A stretch of DNA of 17,756 bases from a virus. Location of the stretch: the IMG/VR virus record IMGVR_UViG_3300045988_028447, positions 1 through 17,756 of that record, one strand, 5' to 3'. The stretch's first letter is position 1. Each line of letters begins with the position of its first letter. Shown here one piece after another: positions 3,915-17,756 of the stretch. Below the pieces are notes generated by a model that saw only the letters and a list, made by a program, of their open reading frames with translations, made no database searches and was not told where the DNA came from. The position numbers were made by a program, and so were the translations under genes.

Positions 3915-5375
3915 TCACTCCCTGCCGATAGGAGTGAAACTCTGGGGCGTAATCCAACAACTACCAGACAACGCGCCGCCGCCGACAACACCGGTTATAG
4001 CCAGAACGCCGCCATCCAAATGGGCAAACGCCAGCTGATTGCCCGCATCACCCAGAATCATGACGAAATTATCACCAAGGCCGATGAAGTTCGGTAGCTT
4101 CGCAATAGTACCGGACGGACTGGAAGCAGTGAACTTCGCAGTAAGCGTCACCACGCCGCCCGCAAAACGCCAATGAAGCTTACCCGAACAACCACCGGTC
4201 ATCTCCACCTCGCCGGAAAGCTCACCCATGCACGGCTCACAATCGCCCGCAATGGTCGAAGCGAGAATACCGGCAATATAATTCGCACCGTTCGCATTGT
4301 AATGAGGGTCGCCCTCCTTAGCGAACCAATCAGAATGGCCCATGCCGAGCGTCCACGTCCACGGATGCCATGTCAAGCCATTCGCCGCCGCCGCCGAAGC
4401 GATGCCATTCATCGCCCGGGCGTTCTCGGACGGAATGATCGCATTATCCCAAAGGAAAATAGCATGAGCCGAAGCATTCGGAAAATTCCGGCCCGCACGC
4501 GGCCCGGTACCCAGCAGCGCATCGAACACGCCAAGCGCCGAATCATACGCATCGCCGACATCGTTCCTACCACCGCAAACCACCACATACTTAACCTTCC
4601 TACGGGCGTCGACATCCATTGCGGAAAGCGCCTCGCTGGCGAGGGTAAGGAACGTCTTACCCCCATCGCCCGCCCTACCATAGCCACTGGCATTATTGGC
4701 GAACACATGCAGATTAAGCCCCAGCTTCGACGCGACACGCTGAGGAATACGCTTGCTTTCGGCAAGCGCGGCCATCCCCGGCTGAAAACCGGTACTGACA
4801 CTGTCACCAATCCACACCAGTTCGGTAAGGTCGGTGGTCACGGCAGCGACGGCATTCACGGCAGTCTGCGCGGCGACAGCCGTCGACTTCGCCACACCGG
4901 CATCATCCTTCGCCGTAATGGCAGTGGAATTGATGCTCGCCGCCGTACCGGAATATCCACCCAATTGCAGATAACGGCCATCCGCCTCGCCCCTGGTATA
5001 CACGGAGCCAGCATCCACCTTACCTGCAAGAGCGCCGGAATCAGCCTTGCCATTGATGGCAGTCAGCAGATTGCGCGCCGTGACTTCGGAAGTGACGCCA
5101 AGTTCGCCGAAATAGCCGTTCAATTCGGTGATGTCGGTCCTATTGGCCTGCGCAAGATCCAAGGCGCCATCGGCTGCGGTCTTCGCCTGACCCGCCGCCG
5201 CGCCCGCATTGTTCGCCGCCGCCGTCGCCGTAGTGATATCGGTCGCGTTCCTATACATCTGCCCATCGATTCGGCTCATGTCCGCGGTATAATCACCACG
5301 CCACGACGGCTTGTCGTCCGGACTGTCGCCGAACTGGCTGAGATTATAATGAGGGGTCTTATTGACACTACTCAT
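3915..5375 (-). CDS. Tail fibre / appendage protein with C-terminal SGNH (GDSL) esterase domain and terminal beta-rich knob
   Basis: ATG at 5375 has GAGGAA 8 nt upstream; the track start at 5396 is a TTG. The N-terminus TPHYNLSQFGDSPDDKPSW...DMSRIDGQM is a common phage-fibre anchor motif, and the shaft motif VYTRGEADGRYL follows. SGNH blocks are VWIGDSVSTG (I), VVCGGRNDVG (III) and GDPHYNANG (V). Confidence 0.8.
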   Translation of the reverse strand: MSSVNKTPHYNLSQFGDSPDDKPSWRGDYTADMSRIDGQMYRNATDITTATAAANNAGAAAGQAKTAADGALDLAQANRTDITELNGYFGELGVTSEVTARNLLTAINGKADSGALAGKVDAGSVYTRGEADGRYLQLGGYSGTAASINSTAITAKDDAGVAKSTAVAAQTAVNAVAAVTTDLTELVWIGDSVSTGFQPGMAALAESKRIPQRVASKLGLNLHVFANNASGYGRAGDGGKTFLTLASEALSAMDVDARRKVKYVVVCGGRNDVGDAYDSALGVFDALLGTGPRAGRNFPNASAHAIFLWDNAIIPSENARAMNGIASAAAANGLTWHPWTWTLGMGHSDWFAKEGDPHYNANGANYIAGILASTIAGDCEPCMGELSGEVEMTGGCSGKLHWRFAGGVVTLTAKFTASSPSGTIAKLPNFIGLGDNFVMILGDAGNQLAFAHLDGGVLAITGVVGGGALSGSCWITPQSFTPIGRE

Positions 5376-5427
5376 GGTGAAGTTCCTCGCTTTCAATACT
5401 ACGGGTAGGCGTTTTTACTCGAACAAC

Positions 5428-5785: not shown

Positions 5786-5971
5786 GCCGCCATCATGATC
5801 GCCGGCATACGCAGGGCGGTCATCCTACGCATACCGGCTTAACCCGTAACGTTCGACATGATCGGTGGCCGTCATGACCACACCTCGCGGCTCCCGAAGT
5901 CCGACACGGTCGGATCACGCCGGACATAGGCGGCGTCCGCGTCAAGCCCGGTCAAGCAAACGCCAGTCGGT

Positions 5972-6513: not shown

Positions 6514-7308
6514 CTACTCCCATTCTCCATAGTTACGACAGTTACCGAAAATGGTATCATACGAACCCCATACTTGCATGAAGCACGGTTCGAGACTGCG
6601 CACGACCTCCATGTCCACATTGATGACCGCGCCACGGTATTCCTGAATCAGGCTCATGGCGCTCTGGCTACGCCCGGTCACATGGCTCTTGCCCTTGGAA
6701 TTGCTTGAATCATGCTGAAAATCAGTGGCGCTTTGAGCGGTGGTATGACTGGCCGAATCCTGTGAGCTGGACGCAGTGCCCGAACTGTCCGCCTGCGACT
6801 CGTTCGCATGGGAAGCGTAGCGTGAAAAATCGCCTACGACGCCGGTCTGCGGCACGTCGCTGTCGAAACTCCTGGACGTGGTAGTGCTGCTGTTATCCGA
6901 CTTGCTGGCACTGTTGCTCGTCGAATCCTGCATACTGGACGCCTTGCCGGATGACTGGGATTCACTGCCGTTCTCACTGTCCGTAACCATGTCCACGGAA
7001 TCCAACGGATCATATTCCAAGTCCAGCGTCCTATAGCGTTCGTTGAAATAAGGCATGACCTCCGCCATCGTCATGCCCAGATAGAACACGAACTGCTGCG
7101 CGGTCTCCTGTCCTATCTCCCTGAGCGCGTAATGGCGGACGATCTTCTCATTCAATTCCGCGCGGTGAGATTCGTCATATATCGGATAATAGTCGGCGCT
7201 CAAGTGCAGCCTATCGTCGGTATCGTATCCGAATGCAATAAGATTGCCAAGGGTTTCGGTGTACTCCCCCGGCGTCTCCATCGCATAGGCGCTAAAATCC
7301 TGTGTCAT
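6514..7308 (-). CDS. Lower collar protein (phi29 gp11-like) with a long Ser/Thr/Asp/Gln-rich insertion
   Basis: YYPIYDESHRAELNEKIVRHYALREIGQETAQQFVFYL...MPYFNERY matches the conserved gp11-family N-terminal pattern. The gene lies immediately after the connector gene, with an ATGA stop/start overlap at 7305-7308. GGAGGTG RBS is present. Confidence 0.75.
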   Translation of the reverse strand: MTQDFSAYAMETPGEYTETLGNLIAFGYDTDDRLHLSADYYPIYDESHRAELNEKIVRHYALREIGQETAQQFVFYLGMTMAEVMPYFNERYRTLDLEYDPLDSVDMVTDSENGSESQSSGKASSMQDSTSNSASKSDNSSTTTSRSFDSDVPQTGVVGDFSRYASHANESQADSSGTASSSQDSASHTTAQSATDFQHDSSNSKGKSHVTGRSQSAMSLIQEYRGAVINVDMEVVRSLEPCFMQVWGSYDTIFGNCRNYGEWE

Positions 7309-8255
7309 AACACACCTCCGATACCCGCATCGTATGATGAGGGCATGTCGACATCCGTCGTACCGCCCGTGCCCGAATCAAGAGCATTGGGCACTCCGGA
7401 ACTTTGCACGTCCGCATATTCAACCCACACGTCCAACTGCGGCCACAGTCGGTTAATTTCCGTCGCCGCCGTCTGCCGAGCCTTAAGGAAACTCAATCGG
7501 AACACGTCCACCTTTTCGTTGGCTTGCGCCACCTCATCCGAAATGAGCCGCTCCTTCTTCTCCGTACCACTGGACTGGATGCCCAGGTATCCCAACACCT
7601 CGTTGGTCACCTGGGTCTTCTGCTGGATGAACTTGTCCAACAGATACGGCGTAGTGTTGGGCCACGGCTGGAACATGCTGCCGGGATCCAACGAATCATA
7701 GCCGATGATATAATCCTGACCGTCCTGTCGCTGCTGCAGCATGTTCTGGACGGTGAGCTTGGTCCGAGGATCGGCGGTGATGATGGTCGGCAGCTTCAAA
7801 CCCTCCAAGTTCACGTCGTACGCCTTATCGATATCCGCAAGACGCCGCGCATACTGCCATAGGATATCCTTGAACGACATGCGCATGCGGTTATCCCAGA
7901 TGGGAATGCATTCACGGCCCGCCTTAAGCTGCCTGTAATGATAGTTGACGCCCACCGGCTCGAAACACGTCGGATTATTATATACGTTCAGTCGGCCTTG
8001 ATATCCGGCCTGGGTCACCAGGAACCGGCCTATGCGCCCATCCTCGAAAAAGAGGGCGCACCCATATTCGCACAAACACATTTCGAGCCATCGTTCGTCC
8101 ACAGTCGGCGGCAATCCACGCCAACTGAATCGGTTCAGCGCCAGCTCTTCCAACAAATGATAATACATGCCGTCAAGGTCGGCGGCGCGTGCCTTCGCGT
8201 AATTGCCGCGCGGATGCAACGCGCCGCCGACCCGATTCTTCCTAGACCTACTCAT
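7305..8255 (-). CDS. Head-tail connector / portal (phi29 gp10-like upper collar)
   Basis: The 316-aa size is in the gp10 range. It has a basic N-terminus and the motifs LALNRFSWRGLP, CLCEYGCALFF and IPIWDN typical of the small Picovirinae connector family. It sits between tail knob and lower collar as in phi29. Confidence 0.85.
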   Translation of the reverse strand: MSRSRKNRVGGALHPRGNYAKARAADLDGMYYHLLEELALNRFSWRGLPPTVDERWLEMCLCEYGCALFFEDGRIGRFLVTQAGYQGRLNVYNNPTCFEPVGVNYHYRQLKAGRECIPIWDNRMRMSFKDILWQYARRLADIDKAYDVNLEGLKLPTIITADPRTKLTVQNMLQQRQDGQDYIIGYDSLDPGSMFQPWPNTTPYLLDKFIQQKTQVTNEVLGYLGIQSSGTEKKERLISDEVAQANEKVDVFRLSFLKARQTAATEINRLWPQLDVWVEYADVQSSGVPNALDSGTGGTTDVDMPSSYDAGIGGVL

Positions 8256-10586: not shown

Positions 10587-10666
10587 GACCCGGAACGCTC
10601 ACGAAGGTCACGTTCCGGGTCCTGACTTACATCACACCGTGAGAGAGTGCGGCCCAAGCCGCACTC
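10587..10666 (-). promoter_or_regulatory. Two strong RNA stem-loops between the capsid and tail-knob genes
   Basis: Hairpin 1 pairs 10645-10653 with 10658-10666 (9 bp, 4-nt loop). Hairpin 2 pairs 10587-10597 with 10611-10621 (11 bp perfect, 13-nt loop). Neither has a clear U-tract, so they are more likely an mRNA-stabilising or partial-termination element than a full terminator. Confidence 0.55.
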
Positions 10667-10674
10667 CCATCATA

Positions 10675-12433: not shown

Positions 12434-12775
12434 TCAGTCTTCATACAGGTCGGAGAATGTACCATAAGTGCCGTTATAGTCGTCGTCGGTCATTTCCGTG
12501 GCGTCCGGCGTCGCGTCGCCGTCCGGGCCATCGTTCAGCACGTGGTCGGCCGCCGCGTCGCGCATCGCCTCAATGGTCTTCGACAATTCGGCCACGGTCG
12601 CTTCGAGCGCGCTGAGACGGTCAGCCATGTCGGCGGTCTTATCGTCTCCCGCGTCCTCCGGTTCGCCATCGTCCCGAACCTTAAGTTCCGGGTTCGGCGT
12701 ATCGGCTTCGGCGGTCGTGTCCGGCTCGATGTCGGGCGCGGCATCCGGCTTGCCATCGATTTCAGTGTCGTTCAT
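12434..12775 (-). CDS. Scaffolding protein (candidate)
   Basis: The 113-aa product is extremely acidic, with a central helical segment (MADRLSALEATVAELSKTIEAMRDAAA). It lies immediately upstream of the capsid gene. ATG at 12775 has AGGGG 5 nt upstream; the track start 12781 is a GTG. Confidence 0.6.
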   Translation of the reverse strand: MNDTEIDGKPDAAPDIEPDTTAEADTPNPELKVRDDGEPEDAGDDKTADMADRLSALEATVAELSKTIEAMRDAAADHVLNDGPDGDATPDATEMTDDDYNGTYGTFSDLYED

Positions 12776-12793
12776 AATCACCCCTTATAAGGT

Positions 12794-12824
12794 AAAAGGC
12801 CCGGCAGCAATCACGCTGCCGGGC
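12794..12824 (-). terminator. Intrinsic terminator / attenuator hairpin just upstream of the scaffold RBS
   Basis: A perfect 10-bp GC-rich stem pairs 12799-12808 with 12815-12824 around a 6-nt loop. On minus-strand RNA it is followed by CUUUUAC (12794-12797 = UUUU). Confidence 0.75.
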
Positions 12825-12957
12825 AGGATTGCTAGGCTGTGCGGGTTCCCTCGCCGTCGATGGGCGCTGGCTACGCACGTCTTCCATCCGACCGAATCGC
12901 CTTACCGATTGCCTGACGGTCGGGCCATCGAATCGACTTGGGACGCACACCCCGCTA
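12794..12957 (-). ncRNA. Candidate structured small RNA of about 160 nt (possible phi29-type packaging RNA, or late-operon leader)
   Basis: The unit is bounded by the TGcTATAAT promoter (12964-12973) and the terminator (12794-12824). It contains co-linear nested complementarities: 12944-12951/12835-12843, 12940-12943/12847-12850, 12932-12937/12856-12861, 12924-12927/12868-12871, and a bulged hairpin 12888-12899/12906-12923. The only ORF here is an Arg/Pro-rich 67-mer running through the terminator. Confidence 0.35.
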
Positions 12958-12963
12958 CCGGTC

Positions 12964-12993
12964 ATTATAGCACAAAGAAACAGCCGTCGTCAT
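12964..12993 (-). promoter_or_regulatory. Extended -10 promoter overlapping the pol stop codon
   Basis: The minus strand reads ATGACG (12988-12993), an 18-nt spacer, then TGcTATAAT (12964-12973). The perfect TATAAT has a TG at -15/-14. Confidence 0.5.
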
Positions 12994-14425
12994 TGACATG
13001 ACGTGACCCCGGTAGAAACTCGTCGTAGGGTATGGGAGCCGCCCGATGCACGCCGCTCAGCCGCATCACCGTACCGCCGTCCTCCTGAACGCCGCAATAT
13101 TTGCGATTGCCGAGGATGCGAAGTTTCTCATAGGTATGGTCGTTTTTCCATGCGCCCAGCTTACTATCGTCCGTTTCGATATCCGCGGGCGCATCCGACC
13201 CCTCCAAAATCATGCCGTCCGTATCGGCGTAGAGCACGCGGTCGGCATTCGCATTCATTGCACGGGACAGTATCCGCCGACCGTAGGCGTTGACATAGGC
13301 GGCGGTCGGCAGCCATGCGAGAGAGTTGGTTGACTCGGGTTTATCCACAGTAAAATCCACTCCGCCATCGCCAGAGGGTTTCGGATGCAGCATGGGCCGG
13401 TAGAGCGAAGCCCCGAATTTTCCCACCAGTGAGTTCAACAGCAGTTTCGCCATCTGCCGCCGTTCCCCGGTCGCGGTCCGCTTGACGTGGAACCACTTGT
13501 CCACATACGCACAATAGAGGCCGTGTGACTTACGGAATTTCCAGCCACCGACATGATCCCACACGTGGACGTCGTAGTTTTCCGCAAGCGTCTGCCAATC
13601 CACATCCGTGACCGGCATGGTGACGACACCTAGCGTACTGTCCAGACGTTCGCCCTCATACCCCCATACTGGTAGGATGTTGGTGAGTGTCGCCGTTTTT
13701 CCCGCTTTCAGCCGCGCATCGAACGAGACGACATCGACATGCAGCGGATAATCGGCATCATCCCGATATTCCCCGTCATACCATACGGGAGCACCTACCG
13801 GCATGGCAAGGTCGTGCATGATACTCGGATAAAGGCTGTTCACATCCCAGCTTCTGCAATCCCGGTATTCGCCCGGCTTGCCATACACTATCGACCCATA
13901 GTAAGCGGGGCGCATCCGACGATAATCACCCTTATCCAATGGAGGGAAATGACGTTTGAAGCCGGCGTAATCCCCTTCGATGTAATCGGTCATCGCCATT
14001 GAGGCTATGGTCGTGCCCTTGAGATTCAGGGCGTCGCATTCCCGCGCGACATTCCACGTGACTTCCAAGTCGGTAGCTCCTCCAAACGTTTCACGCGAAA
14101 CATTCAACCCGTCATCGCGCGTGATATTGCGCACATCCAGAAAATCCACGGTGATACCGCCCATGCGCACGCGGAAACTGTAGAAGTGGCCGCGAATGTT
14201 GAACGTTCCCCACACACCGTCCTTGCTGGGGTTCGGTTGCGACGGAAGACGTTTCAATAGTTCAGCGGCCATAGGCTCGATGTCCCGCCATCCATGAGCG
14301 CACCATACGCGCGTATGATGGTCAAGCATGGTGAGACGGATGACGGCATTCGCCGTCAATGGCGTCACACCATCATCCGTCAATAATGTCGTGCCGTCCG
14401 TTGCCGCCGTTCGACGCTCTTTCAT
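12965..14425 (-). CDS. Protein-primed family-B DNA polymerase (compact, 486 aa)
   Basis: Motif A is WDVNSLYPSIM, motif B KLLLNSLVGKFG, motif C VLYADTDGM, and the KxY motif is GNRKY. RVWCAHGW resembles phi29 RVWAYGY. RBS AAGGA lies 7 nt upstream of the ATG at 14425. Confidence 0.93.
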   Translation of the reverse strand: MKERRTAATDGTTLLTDDGVTPLTANAVIRLTMLDHHTRVWCAHGWRDIEPMAAELLKRLPSQPNPSKDGVWGTFNIRGHFYSFRVRMGGITVDFLDVRNITRDDGLNVSRETFGGATDLEVTWNVARECDALNLKGTTIASMAMTDYIEGDYAGFKRHFPPLDKGDYRRMRPAYYGSIVYGKPGEYRDCRSWDVNSLYPSIMHDLAMPVGAPVWYDGEYRDDADYPLHVDVVSFDARLKAGKTATLTNILPVWGYEGERLDSTLGVVTMPVTDVDWQTLAENYDVHVWDHVGGWKFRKSHGLYCAYVDKWFHVKRTATGERRQMAKLLLNSLVGKFGASLYRPMLHPKPSGDGGVDFTVDKPESTNSLAWLPTAAYVNAYGRRILSRAMNANADRVLYADTDGMILEGSDAPADIETDDSKLGAWKNDHTYEKLRILGNRKYCGVQEDGGTVMRLSGVHRAAPIPYDEFLPGSRHVNDDGCFFVL

Positions 14426-15382: not shown

Positions 15383-15405
15383 AGCCTCTCCTTATGAGTG
15401 TAAAA

Positions 15406-15446
15406 CACCCCCCCCGCCGCAAGGATGGAAAACGACGGGGGGGGTG
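15406..15446 (-). promoter_or_regulatory. C8/G8 homopolymer-stem hairpin in the SSB-TP spacer (possible attenuator/terminator or 5'-UTR structure)
   Basis: The C-run 15408-15415 pairs with the G-run 15437-15444. The stem is extended by ca/tg and by gccg/cgac (one mismatch). The loop is 13 nt. On minus-strand RNA it is followed by UGUUUUAC and then the TP RBS. Confidence 0.5.
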
Positions 15447-15509
15447 AGTCTGGCGGCAACATCCCCTATAGGGACGTTACCATATTATCGAATGGCGTGG
15501 ACATTTACG

Positions 15510-17637: not shown

Positions 17638-17756
17638 CCAAAACACGACACGCTGGAACAACAAAAAACAATAAAAAAACCACGCACCCAAACCATGAAA
17701 CAAAACAACAACAAAAACCGGCAATAAAAAAAGACGAAAACAAACAGAAGACAGCA
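17638..17756. repeat. Right inverted terminal repeat (ITR-R)
   Basis: Exact reverse complement of positions 1-119. Confidence 0.97.

Follow-up and report, generated by a model that had tools for sequence, protein, structure and literature searches.

A conserved, structured RNA between the polymerase and late genes of a phi29-like phage: a candidate divergent packaging RNA

The genome considered here is IMG/VR virus record IMGVR_UViG_3300045988_028447, a stretch of 17,756 bp that was analysed at its full length (the window). All of its genes are carried on the minus strand and, between the gene of a type-B DNA polymerase (pol) and the first of the late genes, which occupies the position of a scaffold gene, there is a gap for which a promoter-to-terminator unit encoding a candidate packaging RNA (pRNA) had been proposed from the letters alone (the original prediction). 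No other RNA is known to form part of a viral DNA-packaging motor, and the pRNA is also widely used as a scaffold in RNA nanotechnology. As modelled here, the unit encodes an RNA of about 165 bases that is conserved, folded and non-coding and that has the architecture of the pRNA of phage phi29, and the comparison with related phages leads us to consider it rather probable that the gap encodes a divergent prohead (packaging) RNA.

The RNA unit and its predicted fold

The order of genes on the minus strand is given, together with the parts of the unit, in Table 1. Following the scaffold-position gene, transcription would pass through the genes for a Phi29_MCP capsid protein (PF25622), a tail protein, the GP10 connector and the lower collar, with variable genes and a hydrolase, and then the Podovirus_Gp16 ATPase and the endolysin, standing last. 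Pfam matches to GP10 and Podovirus_Gp16 show that the connector and the ATPase of a phi29-type motor, both claimed in the original prediction, are indeed present, and the genome combines them with a type-B polymerase and with linear ends of the protein-primed type, as in a phage that would host a pRNA. Its closest cultured relatives are the Bifidobacterium podophages BD811P1-3, BP1 and BadAztec/BadAargau, with a polymerase identity of only about 36%.

The unit opens with a promoter placed over the end of pol. A scan of the minus strand finds a sigma-70-like site, ATGACG-18-TATAAT with a TG extension, spanning 12993-12964, and the predicted extended -10 element overlapping the pol stop is thereby confirmed at 12972-12964; the T and the G of the extension and the TAT.AT of the box are invariant in 80 close relatives (alignment A1, described below). 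The seven bases after the -10 box (A1 columns 38-44) vary, and a near-invariant block opens exactly at column 45, which corresponds to position 12956, so this base is taken as the RNA 5' end. At the opposite end, the best terminator-like site of the entire window is formed by GCCCGGCAGCG-UGAU-UGCUGCCGGGC (12824-12799), followed by CUUUUA, whose stem has 10 Watson-Crick pairs and one G.U; the GC hairpin and U tract that had been noticed there stand, at 12824-12794. From the predicted start to the U tract there are about 165 nucleotides (nt). The description of the unit as self-contained is accurate as regards the four-U tract of the window itself, but not as regards most close relatives, where the U tract is weaker, nor as regards a separate late promoter: no promoter motif lies between the 3' hairpin and the scaffold-position start in any of the 80 relatives, and the RNA probably heads the late transcription unit in the clade of the window.

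The 171-nt stretch 12960-12790 is significantly structured, as expected by the original prediction, with a minimum free energy (MFE) of -85.2 kcal/mol (z = -3.88; none of 200 shuffles equally stable), and the 130-nt core by itself reaches z = -3.38. Among the nested complementary segments proposed earlier, 12944-12951/12835-12843, 12940-12943/12847-12850 and the bulged hairpin 12888-12923 all belong to the MFE fold; the third and fourth pairings of that list were mis-registered, and are replaced by 12937-12934/12856-12853, 12931-12925/12863-12857 and a separate small hairpin at 12876-12864.

Table 1. Parts of the RNA unit and genes of the window, with positions in the window
Feature	Position	Strand	Basis or remarks
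-35-like hexamer ATGACG	12988-12993	minus	promoter scan; inside pol coding sequence; only moderate conservation in relatives
Extended -10 TGcTATAAT	12964-12972	minus	encloses pol stop TAA (12967-12965)
Predicted RNA 5' end, A	12956	minus	8 nt past the -10; inferred from conservation
Terminal helix, 5' strand (helix A equivalent)	12925-12955	minus	MFE and RNAalifold consensus; AA and AU bulges
C-helix equivalent, 5' strand CCGACCG	12917-12923	minus	pairs with 12894-12888; 99.8% paired
CE-bulge equivalent UCAGGC, 5' side	12911-12916	minus	first two bases free to vary
E-hairpin equivalent AAUCG / GUAAGG loop / CGAUU	12895-12910	minus	MFE and consensus
C-helix equivalent, 3' strand CGGUCGG	12888-12894	minus	MFE and consensus
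Single-stranded junction AUGGAAGACGU between arms	12877-12887	minus	unpaired in consensus structure
D-hairpin equivalent GCG-UAGCCAG-CGC	12864-12876	minus	stem pairs 128/139 and 132/138 with compensatory changes
Terminal helix, 3' strand (helix A equivalent)	12831-12863	minus	MFE and consensus
Single-stranded linker AAUCCU	12825-12830	minus	length and sequence variable; indels at A1 columns 177-180
3' hairpin (domain II equivalent and intrinsic terminator stem)	12799-12824	minus	loop region GUGAUU at 12814-12809
U tract UUUU	12794-12797	minus	weak in most close relatives (CCACUUACUUU); strong in BD811P clade (CAUUUUAUUUU)
Small early genes	first in transcription order	minus	
Single-stranded DNA-binding protein (SSB)	15947-15510	minus	
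314-aa gene at terminal-protein position	15382-14438	minus	
Type-B DNA polymerase (pol)	14425-12965	minus	
Scaffold-position gene, 113-115 aa	directly after RNA gap	minus	first late gene
phi29 gp10-type connector	7305-8255	minus	Pfam PF05352, 6e-42; presumed docking partner of RNA
phi29 gp16-type packaging ATPase	1486-2610	minus	Pfam PF05894 Podovirus_Gp16, 9e-43; PHROG 2150; presumed terminal-helix partner

When the 174-nt pRNA of phi29 is folded with the same tool, the same succession of elements is obtained. Both RNAs have a bulged terminal helix (about 25 bp in phi29 and about 28 bp in the window), a first arm made of a helix (9 and 7 bp), a bulge on its 5' side (9 and 6 nt) and a short hairpin (stems of 4 and 5 bp, with the 6-nt loops UUGAGU and GUAAGG, respectively), a second hairpin, a direct return to the terminal helix, and a single-stranded linker leading to a 3' hairpin domain. 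When this topology was cast into explicit criteria, it was recovered in the MFE folds of phi29, of the window core and of BD811P1, but in only 0, 0 and 2 of 1000 dinucleotide shuffles, respectively.

Conservation among close relatives

A polymerase search of IMG/VR provided 80 close relatives (86-93% amino-acid identity), which make up alignment A1, and all 80 carry the RNA unit at the same place. The mean pairwise identity of the RNA core is 0.941, above that of pol (0.847 over all positions and 0.672 at third codon positions) and of the scaffold-position gene (0.844), and one-base indels split the clade, being present in about half of the relatives. A core that is more conserved than the genes flanking it and that tolerates indels of a single nucleotide indicates that the unit is non-coding and under selection. 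The curated structure accommodates A1 with 99.3% of cells forming standard pairs, and 132 cells are changed on both sides of a pair, against 50 +/- 11 in shuffles, a signal that collapses in controls in which the structure is slid along the alignment. G.U pairs outnumber A.C in both comparisons made (221 vs 23 and 296 vs 72), and this excess assigns the fold to the minus-strand transcript.

The individual elements behave differently. In the 80 sequences the 5' strand of the terminal helix is paired in 99-100% of cells, with pair 72/146 changing from GC to AU in 11 of them, and the only changes of the C-helix equivalent are from G-C to G.U. The GGC of the bulge (12913-12911) is invariant in 80/80 and complements the GCC of the D-loop (12871-12869), likewise invariant in 80/80, around which the other loop bases vary and even acquire insertions of 1-3 nt. 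The purine-rich E loop of 6 nt recurs in phi29 (UUGAGU) and in other clades. The 3-bp mini-hairpin that the MFE fold of the window places in the junction 12877-12887 has no support from the relatives. The stem of the 3' hairpin has five compensatory pairs in the clade of the window and three in that of BD811P. Its loop, GUGAUU (12809-12814; A2 columns 159-164, from the alignment of the BD811P relatives described below), is common to the window and BD811P/BP1 clades, though the stems differ and covary. A pseudoknot between this loop and an upstream AAUC was considered and rejected, since the partner base varies.

These data bear most directly on the notion that there is no dedicated RNA at all, and that the gap holds nothing more than a promoter and the terminator of the early genes, any GC-rich structure being incidental, or else codes for a protein of 67 amino acids. 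GC-rich sequence does fold well, single promoter and terminator matches are at background in the window, and an ATG-initiated open reading frame (ORF) of 67 codons (12762-12965) is present there. However, its ATG is kept in only 27 of the 80 relatives, it varies in length between 10 and 65 codons, and it has no PHROG match; with the one-base indels, this unstable start and length indicate that neither strand is coding. The same indels and the same lack of a conserved start and length rule out as genes both this ORF and the antisense ORFs 12498-13001+ and 12829-12996+, so that the non-coding claim of the original prediction, which protein-level conservation of the 67-aa ORF was to have refuted, stands. 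Conservation of the core beyond that of the flanking genes, with no wobble pattern, together with compensatory changes and a fold that is significant against shuffles, is already at odds with this view, to which we give hardly any credence.

The start of the scaffold-position gene is probably the ATG at 12775 (12775-12773), rather than the GTG at 12781 chosen by the ORF finder, as judged from the conservation of this ATG and of a Shine-Dalgarno sequence, AAGGGG (12786-12781), across the 80-sequence alignment. The sole family match of this gene is weak and Rz-like (E 0.0065), and the label of scaffold is thus one of position.

Counterparts in other clades and the co-variation of their loops

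In BD811P1, BP1, BadAztec1 and BadAargau2, pol and the scaffold-position gene are likewise separated by 178-230 nt; TGCTATRRT overlaps the pol stop, the far end is formed by a GC hairpin, and the gap carries no annotation in any deposited relative. A second alignment, A2, was built from 80 IMG/VR relatives of BD811P1 and contains 78 sequences which, with a mean column identity of 81%, are far more variable than those of A1. On a pRNA-type structure, 96.3% of the cells of A2 pair, and 17 pairs are changed on both sides, against 10.8 +/- 1.6 in shuffles (0 of 500 reaching this value) and 2-6 in slid controls; the first arm accounts for six of these pairs, the second hairpin for five, the 3' hairpin for three and the terminal helix for two. 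Structure-preserving covariation, proposed as a check in the original prediction, was therefore found both in the window clade and in the BD811P/BP1 clade. In the latter, the 3' hairpin is followed by a T-rich tail in most sequences, and a second extended -10 promoter stands behind the RNA in 78/78, which makes the RNA an insulated gene in this clade.

The RNAs of the honeybee phages, L003 3744-3895 (BadAztec1) and L166 2441-2600 (BadAargau2), have the promoter over the stop, a covarying terminal helix and a 3' hairpin that covaries too and has no U tract behind it. Their inner segment, GGUG-CCGGAAACC-CGUA-UUAAGU-UACG-CCCACC, resembles the phi29 arm GGGG-AUUAAACC-CUGA-UUGAGU-UCAG-CCCAC.

An alignment-based polymerase search added many more clades, mostly of low GC content and with about 30% polymerase identity. 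In a large share of them a consensus promoter lies directly after pol and is followed by an RNA of 110-140 nt whose ends pair in a long terminal helix, and then by a U run and by the ribosome-binding site of the next gene, and several pass the strict test of pRNA topology. The unrelated, low-GC phi29-like gut phages with an RNA after pol include L302, L303, L304, L307, L308, L311, L324, L329, L331 and L342 (all from IMG/VR), and L168 (MT835873); the relatives of the last one, being 97-99% identical, were unusable for covariation. Part of the first-arm sequence of the low-GC clades is common to the BD811P clade, e.g., GUCGGAC-GCUACGGGGUGAAAUCCGCCGA vs GUCGGACUGCCACGGCUGAGAAUGCCGCCGA, and Rfam recognises none of the low-GC RNAs. 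Curtobacterium phage Prophecy (L183) has, at 3985-4178, an unannotated gap of 194 nt before the scaffold-position gene (z -5.4), with a pRNA-like three-way junction, the bulge AUUGCAG, the loop CGUUGCAA (a 5-bp complement) and then a 17-bp terminator. In Eggerthella phage LE1-1 (L182) pol overlaps the next gene and leaves no gap, as it does in several IMG/VR clades (e.g., L305, L306 and L309), and a pol-proximal RNA is hence widespread rather than universal.

The interaction that defines the phi29 pRNA is the pairing of the CE-bulge AACC with the D-loop GGUU of the next molecule (PMC5066667). Besides the invariant GGC/GCC of the window clade, the bulge and loop partners are GCCA/UGGC in the BD811P clade, where the flanking pair switches between G-C, G.U and A-U and is never mismatched, and UAACU/AGUUA, UAAUCA/UGAUUA, GUCA/UGAC, GAC/GUC, CAC/GUG and UUGCA/UGCAA in other clades. 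With loops parsed automatically in nine divergent clades, phi29 included, the longest Watson-Crick runs between bulge and loop sum to 35 for the matched partners, against 23.3 +/- 2.6 when partners are permuted between clades, a sum of 35 being reached by 1 of 20,000 permutations; once five manually parsed clades are added, 0 of 20,000 reach the observed value. Control pairs of loops (bulge/E-loop and E-loop/D-loop) give lower values, of 1-4 bp per clade. As read from these sequences, the complementarity of bulge and loop is a between-clade covariation of the pRNA-defining interaction, and the search for complementary loops able to form a ring, also suggested in the original prediction, has thus yielded both invariant partners within the window clade and co-varying partners between clades.

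The self-complementarity of the loops is also what speaks against a small RNA that would act in trans, as a regulator or on the host, apart from packaging, and that might, for example, titrate a host protein or pair with an mRNA. A strong promoter of its own, a conserved non-coding structure and the conserved single-stranded loops GGC, GCC, GUAAGG and GUGAUU would suit such an RNA. However, no complementarity to a target was found, the conserved loops complement each other and co-vary between clades, which points to self-association, and both topology and synteny match those of pRNA, so we hold this explanation to be improbable.

The main rival, even if an unlikely one, is that the late operon has here a 5' leader or attenuator acting in cis, in which the folded junction, an intramolecular contact of bulge and loop, and the hairpin with its U tract would set the read-through into the scaffold and capsid genes, and which might bind a phage or host factor for temporal control. 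Riboswitch aptamers often contain three-way junctions with loop-loop contacts, and much of the arrangement would be that expected of a leader: in the window clade 0 of 80 relatives have a promoter between hairpin and scaffold start and the U tract is weak, the 3' hairpin of BadAztec/BadAargau has no U tract whatsoever, and in several low-GC clades the terminal helix runs straight into a U run and the ribosome-binding site of the next gene. Against it, the BD811P/BP1 RNA is insulated, by its T-rich tail in most sequences and by a separate promoter behind it in 78/78, and yet it is conserved with covariation. No conserved antiterminator pairing was seen, the consensus fold showing a single structure, although no formal search for alternative pairings was made, and there is no Rfam match to a leader or riboswitch. 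A leader would also leave unexplained the element-by-element match to phi29 pRNA, which comes after pol and precedes no late genes.

Several observations weigh against the assignment of the window RNA to the pRNA type. As mentioned, the RNA of the window clade, like that of most other clades, directly precedes the late genes without an intervening promoter, which fits a cis-acting leader too. The loop complementarity of the window amounts to only 3 bp (GGC/GCC), near chance when taken alone, and the loop-loop pairing could be intramolecular. The core of the window clade is almost invariant, so most of its compensatory changes sit in the 3' hairpin. The topology criteria were drawn from phi29 but set after the folds had been seen, as were some of the loop boundaries. 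The Rfam pRNA family RF00044, which covers the Bacillus phages phi29, PZA, M2/Nf, B103, SF5, GA1 and their relatives, and which the original prediction had named as a check, recovers phi29 with 145 bits and gives no match, at the gathering score or at E <= 10, for the window, the Bifidobacterium phages (L001-L003) or 13 further clades. R1, a covariance model built on the RNA of the BD811P clade, misses the window RNA as well, matching only the GUGAUU hairpin (E 0.7), and the clades are consequently linked by position, promoter arrangement, topology and loop logic, and not by alignable sequence; the same model gives only marginal matches on the syntenic RNAs of L303, L308 and L311. The BadAztec/BadAargau RNA folds uncleanly into the topology, with an ambiguous inner fold. 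Finally, a lone promoter match in the window is no better than chance (22 promoter-like sites vs 14.7 expected), and neither is a lone terminator match (16 vs 15.3), so that the case for the unit rests on the comparison with relatives; what raises it above chance is conservation and covariation in about 160 related genomes.

The permissive Rfam matches to ncr1175, STnc310 and CRISPR-DR9 on the hairpin are noise (E 2-8, far under the gathering scores, and on the plus strand), and the reading of the hairpin as an RNA anti-CRISPR or solitary repeat was dropped with them. By blastn, the region has no meaningful match among GenBank phages.

Genome context, proposed role and comparison with known systems

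The window ends in perfect inverted terminal repeats of 119 bp (1-119 and 17638-17756, the left end being T/G-rich on the plus strand), from which it is taken to be a complete linear, presumably protein-primed, phage genome. Its endolysin region (245-1232) has 84-85% DNA identity to the B. dentium phages BD811P1-3, whereas elsewhere the genome does not match them at the nucleotide level, which suggests a recent exchange of the lysis module and a Bifidobacterium host. Between the endolysin stop and the left terminal repeat, a perfect 10-bp hairpin (200-222) flanked on both sides by U/T runs forms a bidirectional terminator-like site. The spacers 10587-10674, between the capsid and tail genes, and 15383-15509, between the SSB gene and the terminal-protein-position gene, contain two very strong hairpins each (z -5.2 and -4.8, respectively), which are probably terminators or processing sites.

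The gap after pol is not the only long spacer free of ORFs, as had been claimed: 5786-5971 is equally long, at 186 nt, with an MFE of -85.8 (z -2.25) and a perfect 15-bp hairpin, though it is not conserved in relatives. In most of these, the upstream gene extends over about 30 more codons and only a few bases separate it from the next ORF, so that the spacer resembles coding sequence that is variable or has decayed, and not a conserved RNA. As sites for a pRNA, the other spacers of the window were discarded, none of them having the topology and 5786-5971 being replaced by coding sequence in relatives.

If the RNA is a pRNA, its role could be pictured as follows. Host RNA polymerase would start at the constitutive extended -10 over the pol stop, with the 5' end near 12956, and the first ~125 nt (12956-12831) would adopt, as computed, the fold of domain I of phi29 pRNA: the ends of this part form the long bulged helix, which closes a three-way junction with two arms, the first combining a helix with a 6-nt bulge on its 5' side and a short hairpin, and the other being a small hairpin. 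The linker and the 3' hairpin (12824-12799) would be the counterpart of domain II and, with the U tract (12797-12794), would end some transcripts at about 165 nt, while the remaining polymerases would continue into the scaffold, capsid and other late genes, the RNA thereby being made alongside the structural proteins. The GGC of the bulge would pair with the GCC in the second hairpin loop of a neighbouring molecule, building an RNA ring on the basic N-termini of the gp10-type connector, and the free end of the long helix would dock the ATPase of the gp16 type, by which the terminal-protein-linked genome is pumped into the head. The N-terminus translated from the connector gene, MSRSRKNRVGG, is basic and rich in arginine and lysine, and the pRNA-binding N-terminus of phi29 gp10 is likewise basic. 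Under this scheme, the RNA would be required for packaging.

According to reviews, pRNA occurs in phi29 and related Bacillus phages and nowhere else (PMC11476376, PMC5066667), and a 2025 search of a virus database with Infernal covariance models reports 12 new pRNAs (PMC12670572). In the literature searched, no mention of pRNA in Bifidobacterium or other actinobacterial phages was found. The phage names shown in the 2025 survey are those of what we take to be Bacillus phages. We favour, with reasonable but incomplete confidence, the view that the window RNA is a divergent packaging RNA of the phi29 type, a kind so far reported only from Bacillus phages. A broader proposal, for which we see the balance as even, is that this RNA is one member of a large, so far unrecognised pRNA superfamily: most phi29-like phages, including those of Actinobacteria (Bifidobacterium, Curtobacterium) and of low-GC gut bacteria, would encode a packaging RNA right after pol, usually as the first unit of the structural-gene transcript and with co-evolving bulge and loop, the Rfam Bacillus family would be one narrow branch, and pRNA would be ancestral to the lineage. 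Related phages with the same ATPase and connector had seemed to lack a pRNA. Were the proposal true, pRNA would be ancient and general in the phi29-like lineage, many new natural ring-forming loop pairs and three-way junctions would be supplied, the annotation of the deposited relatives would be corrected, and the question of the packaging RNA would become testable in the cultured phages BD811P1-3 and BP1.

Among the known systems, attenuator leaders and riboswitch three-way junctions, such as the aptamer of the purine riboswitch, resemble the RNA of the window clade in being promoter-proximal, in their closing helix, in the complementary loops of their two arms, and in a hairpin and U tract placed directly before an operon. 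They differ in that the window RNA has no Rfam match and one of its arms makes the contact through a bulge instead of a hairpin loop, and in that the RNA of the sister (BD811P) clade is set apart from the late genes by a strong terminator and another promoter.

A pRNA outside the Bacillus phages had been predicted in 1996 for the Streptococcus phage Cp-1 (Martin et al., as cited in PMC6266182), and is reported not to be found by covariance models (PMC6266182). The likeness to the present case is that an RNA was proposed for a non-Bacillus phi29-like phage and that Bacillus-based covariance models miss it; the Cp-1 RNA, however, is reported as a single-genome prediction without comparative support, whereas the type of RNA found in the window has covariation in about 160 genomes. 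The Cp-1 gap 5160-5412 was considered as a site of a pRNA and rejected, since it looks coding and its fold is not pRNA-like.

The closest comparison is with the pRNA of phi29 itself. The window RNA has no detectable sequence similarity to it and is GC-rich; its loops pair through GGC/GCC (3 bp) instead of AACC/GGUU, the junction between its arms has 11 nt instead of UUU, and its domain II is a simple hairpin of 26 nt with a conserved GUGAUU loop. Whereas the phi29 gene lies at the genome end, that of the window is internal, directly before the scaffold and capsid genes, with which it is probably co-transcribed, and its host would be of an actinobacterial (Bifidobacterium-type) rather than a Bacillus kind. 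On the other hand, both belong to protein-primed podophages with a gp10 connector and a gp16 ATPase, and both are RNAs of about 165-174 nt with a constitutive promoter of their own, encoded downstream of SSB, terminal protein and pol and on the strand of these genes: phi29 has, in succession, SSB, terminal protein, pol, four small ORFs, promoter A1 and pRNA, and the window has SSB, terminal-protein-position gene, pol, promoter and RNA. They share as well the elements of domain I, a bulge that complements the loop of the second hairpin, and a linker followed by a 3' hairpin domain, as described for the pRNA of phi29 (PMC5066667).

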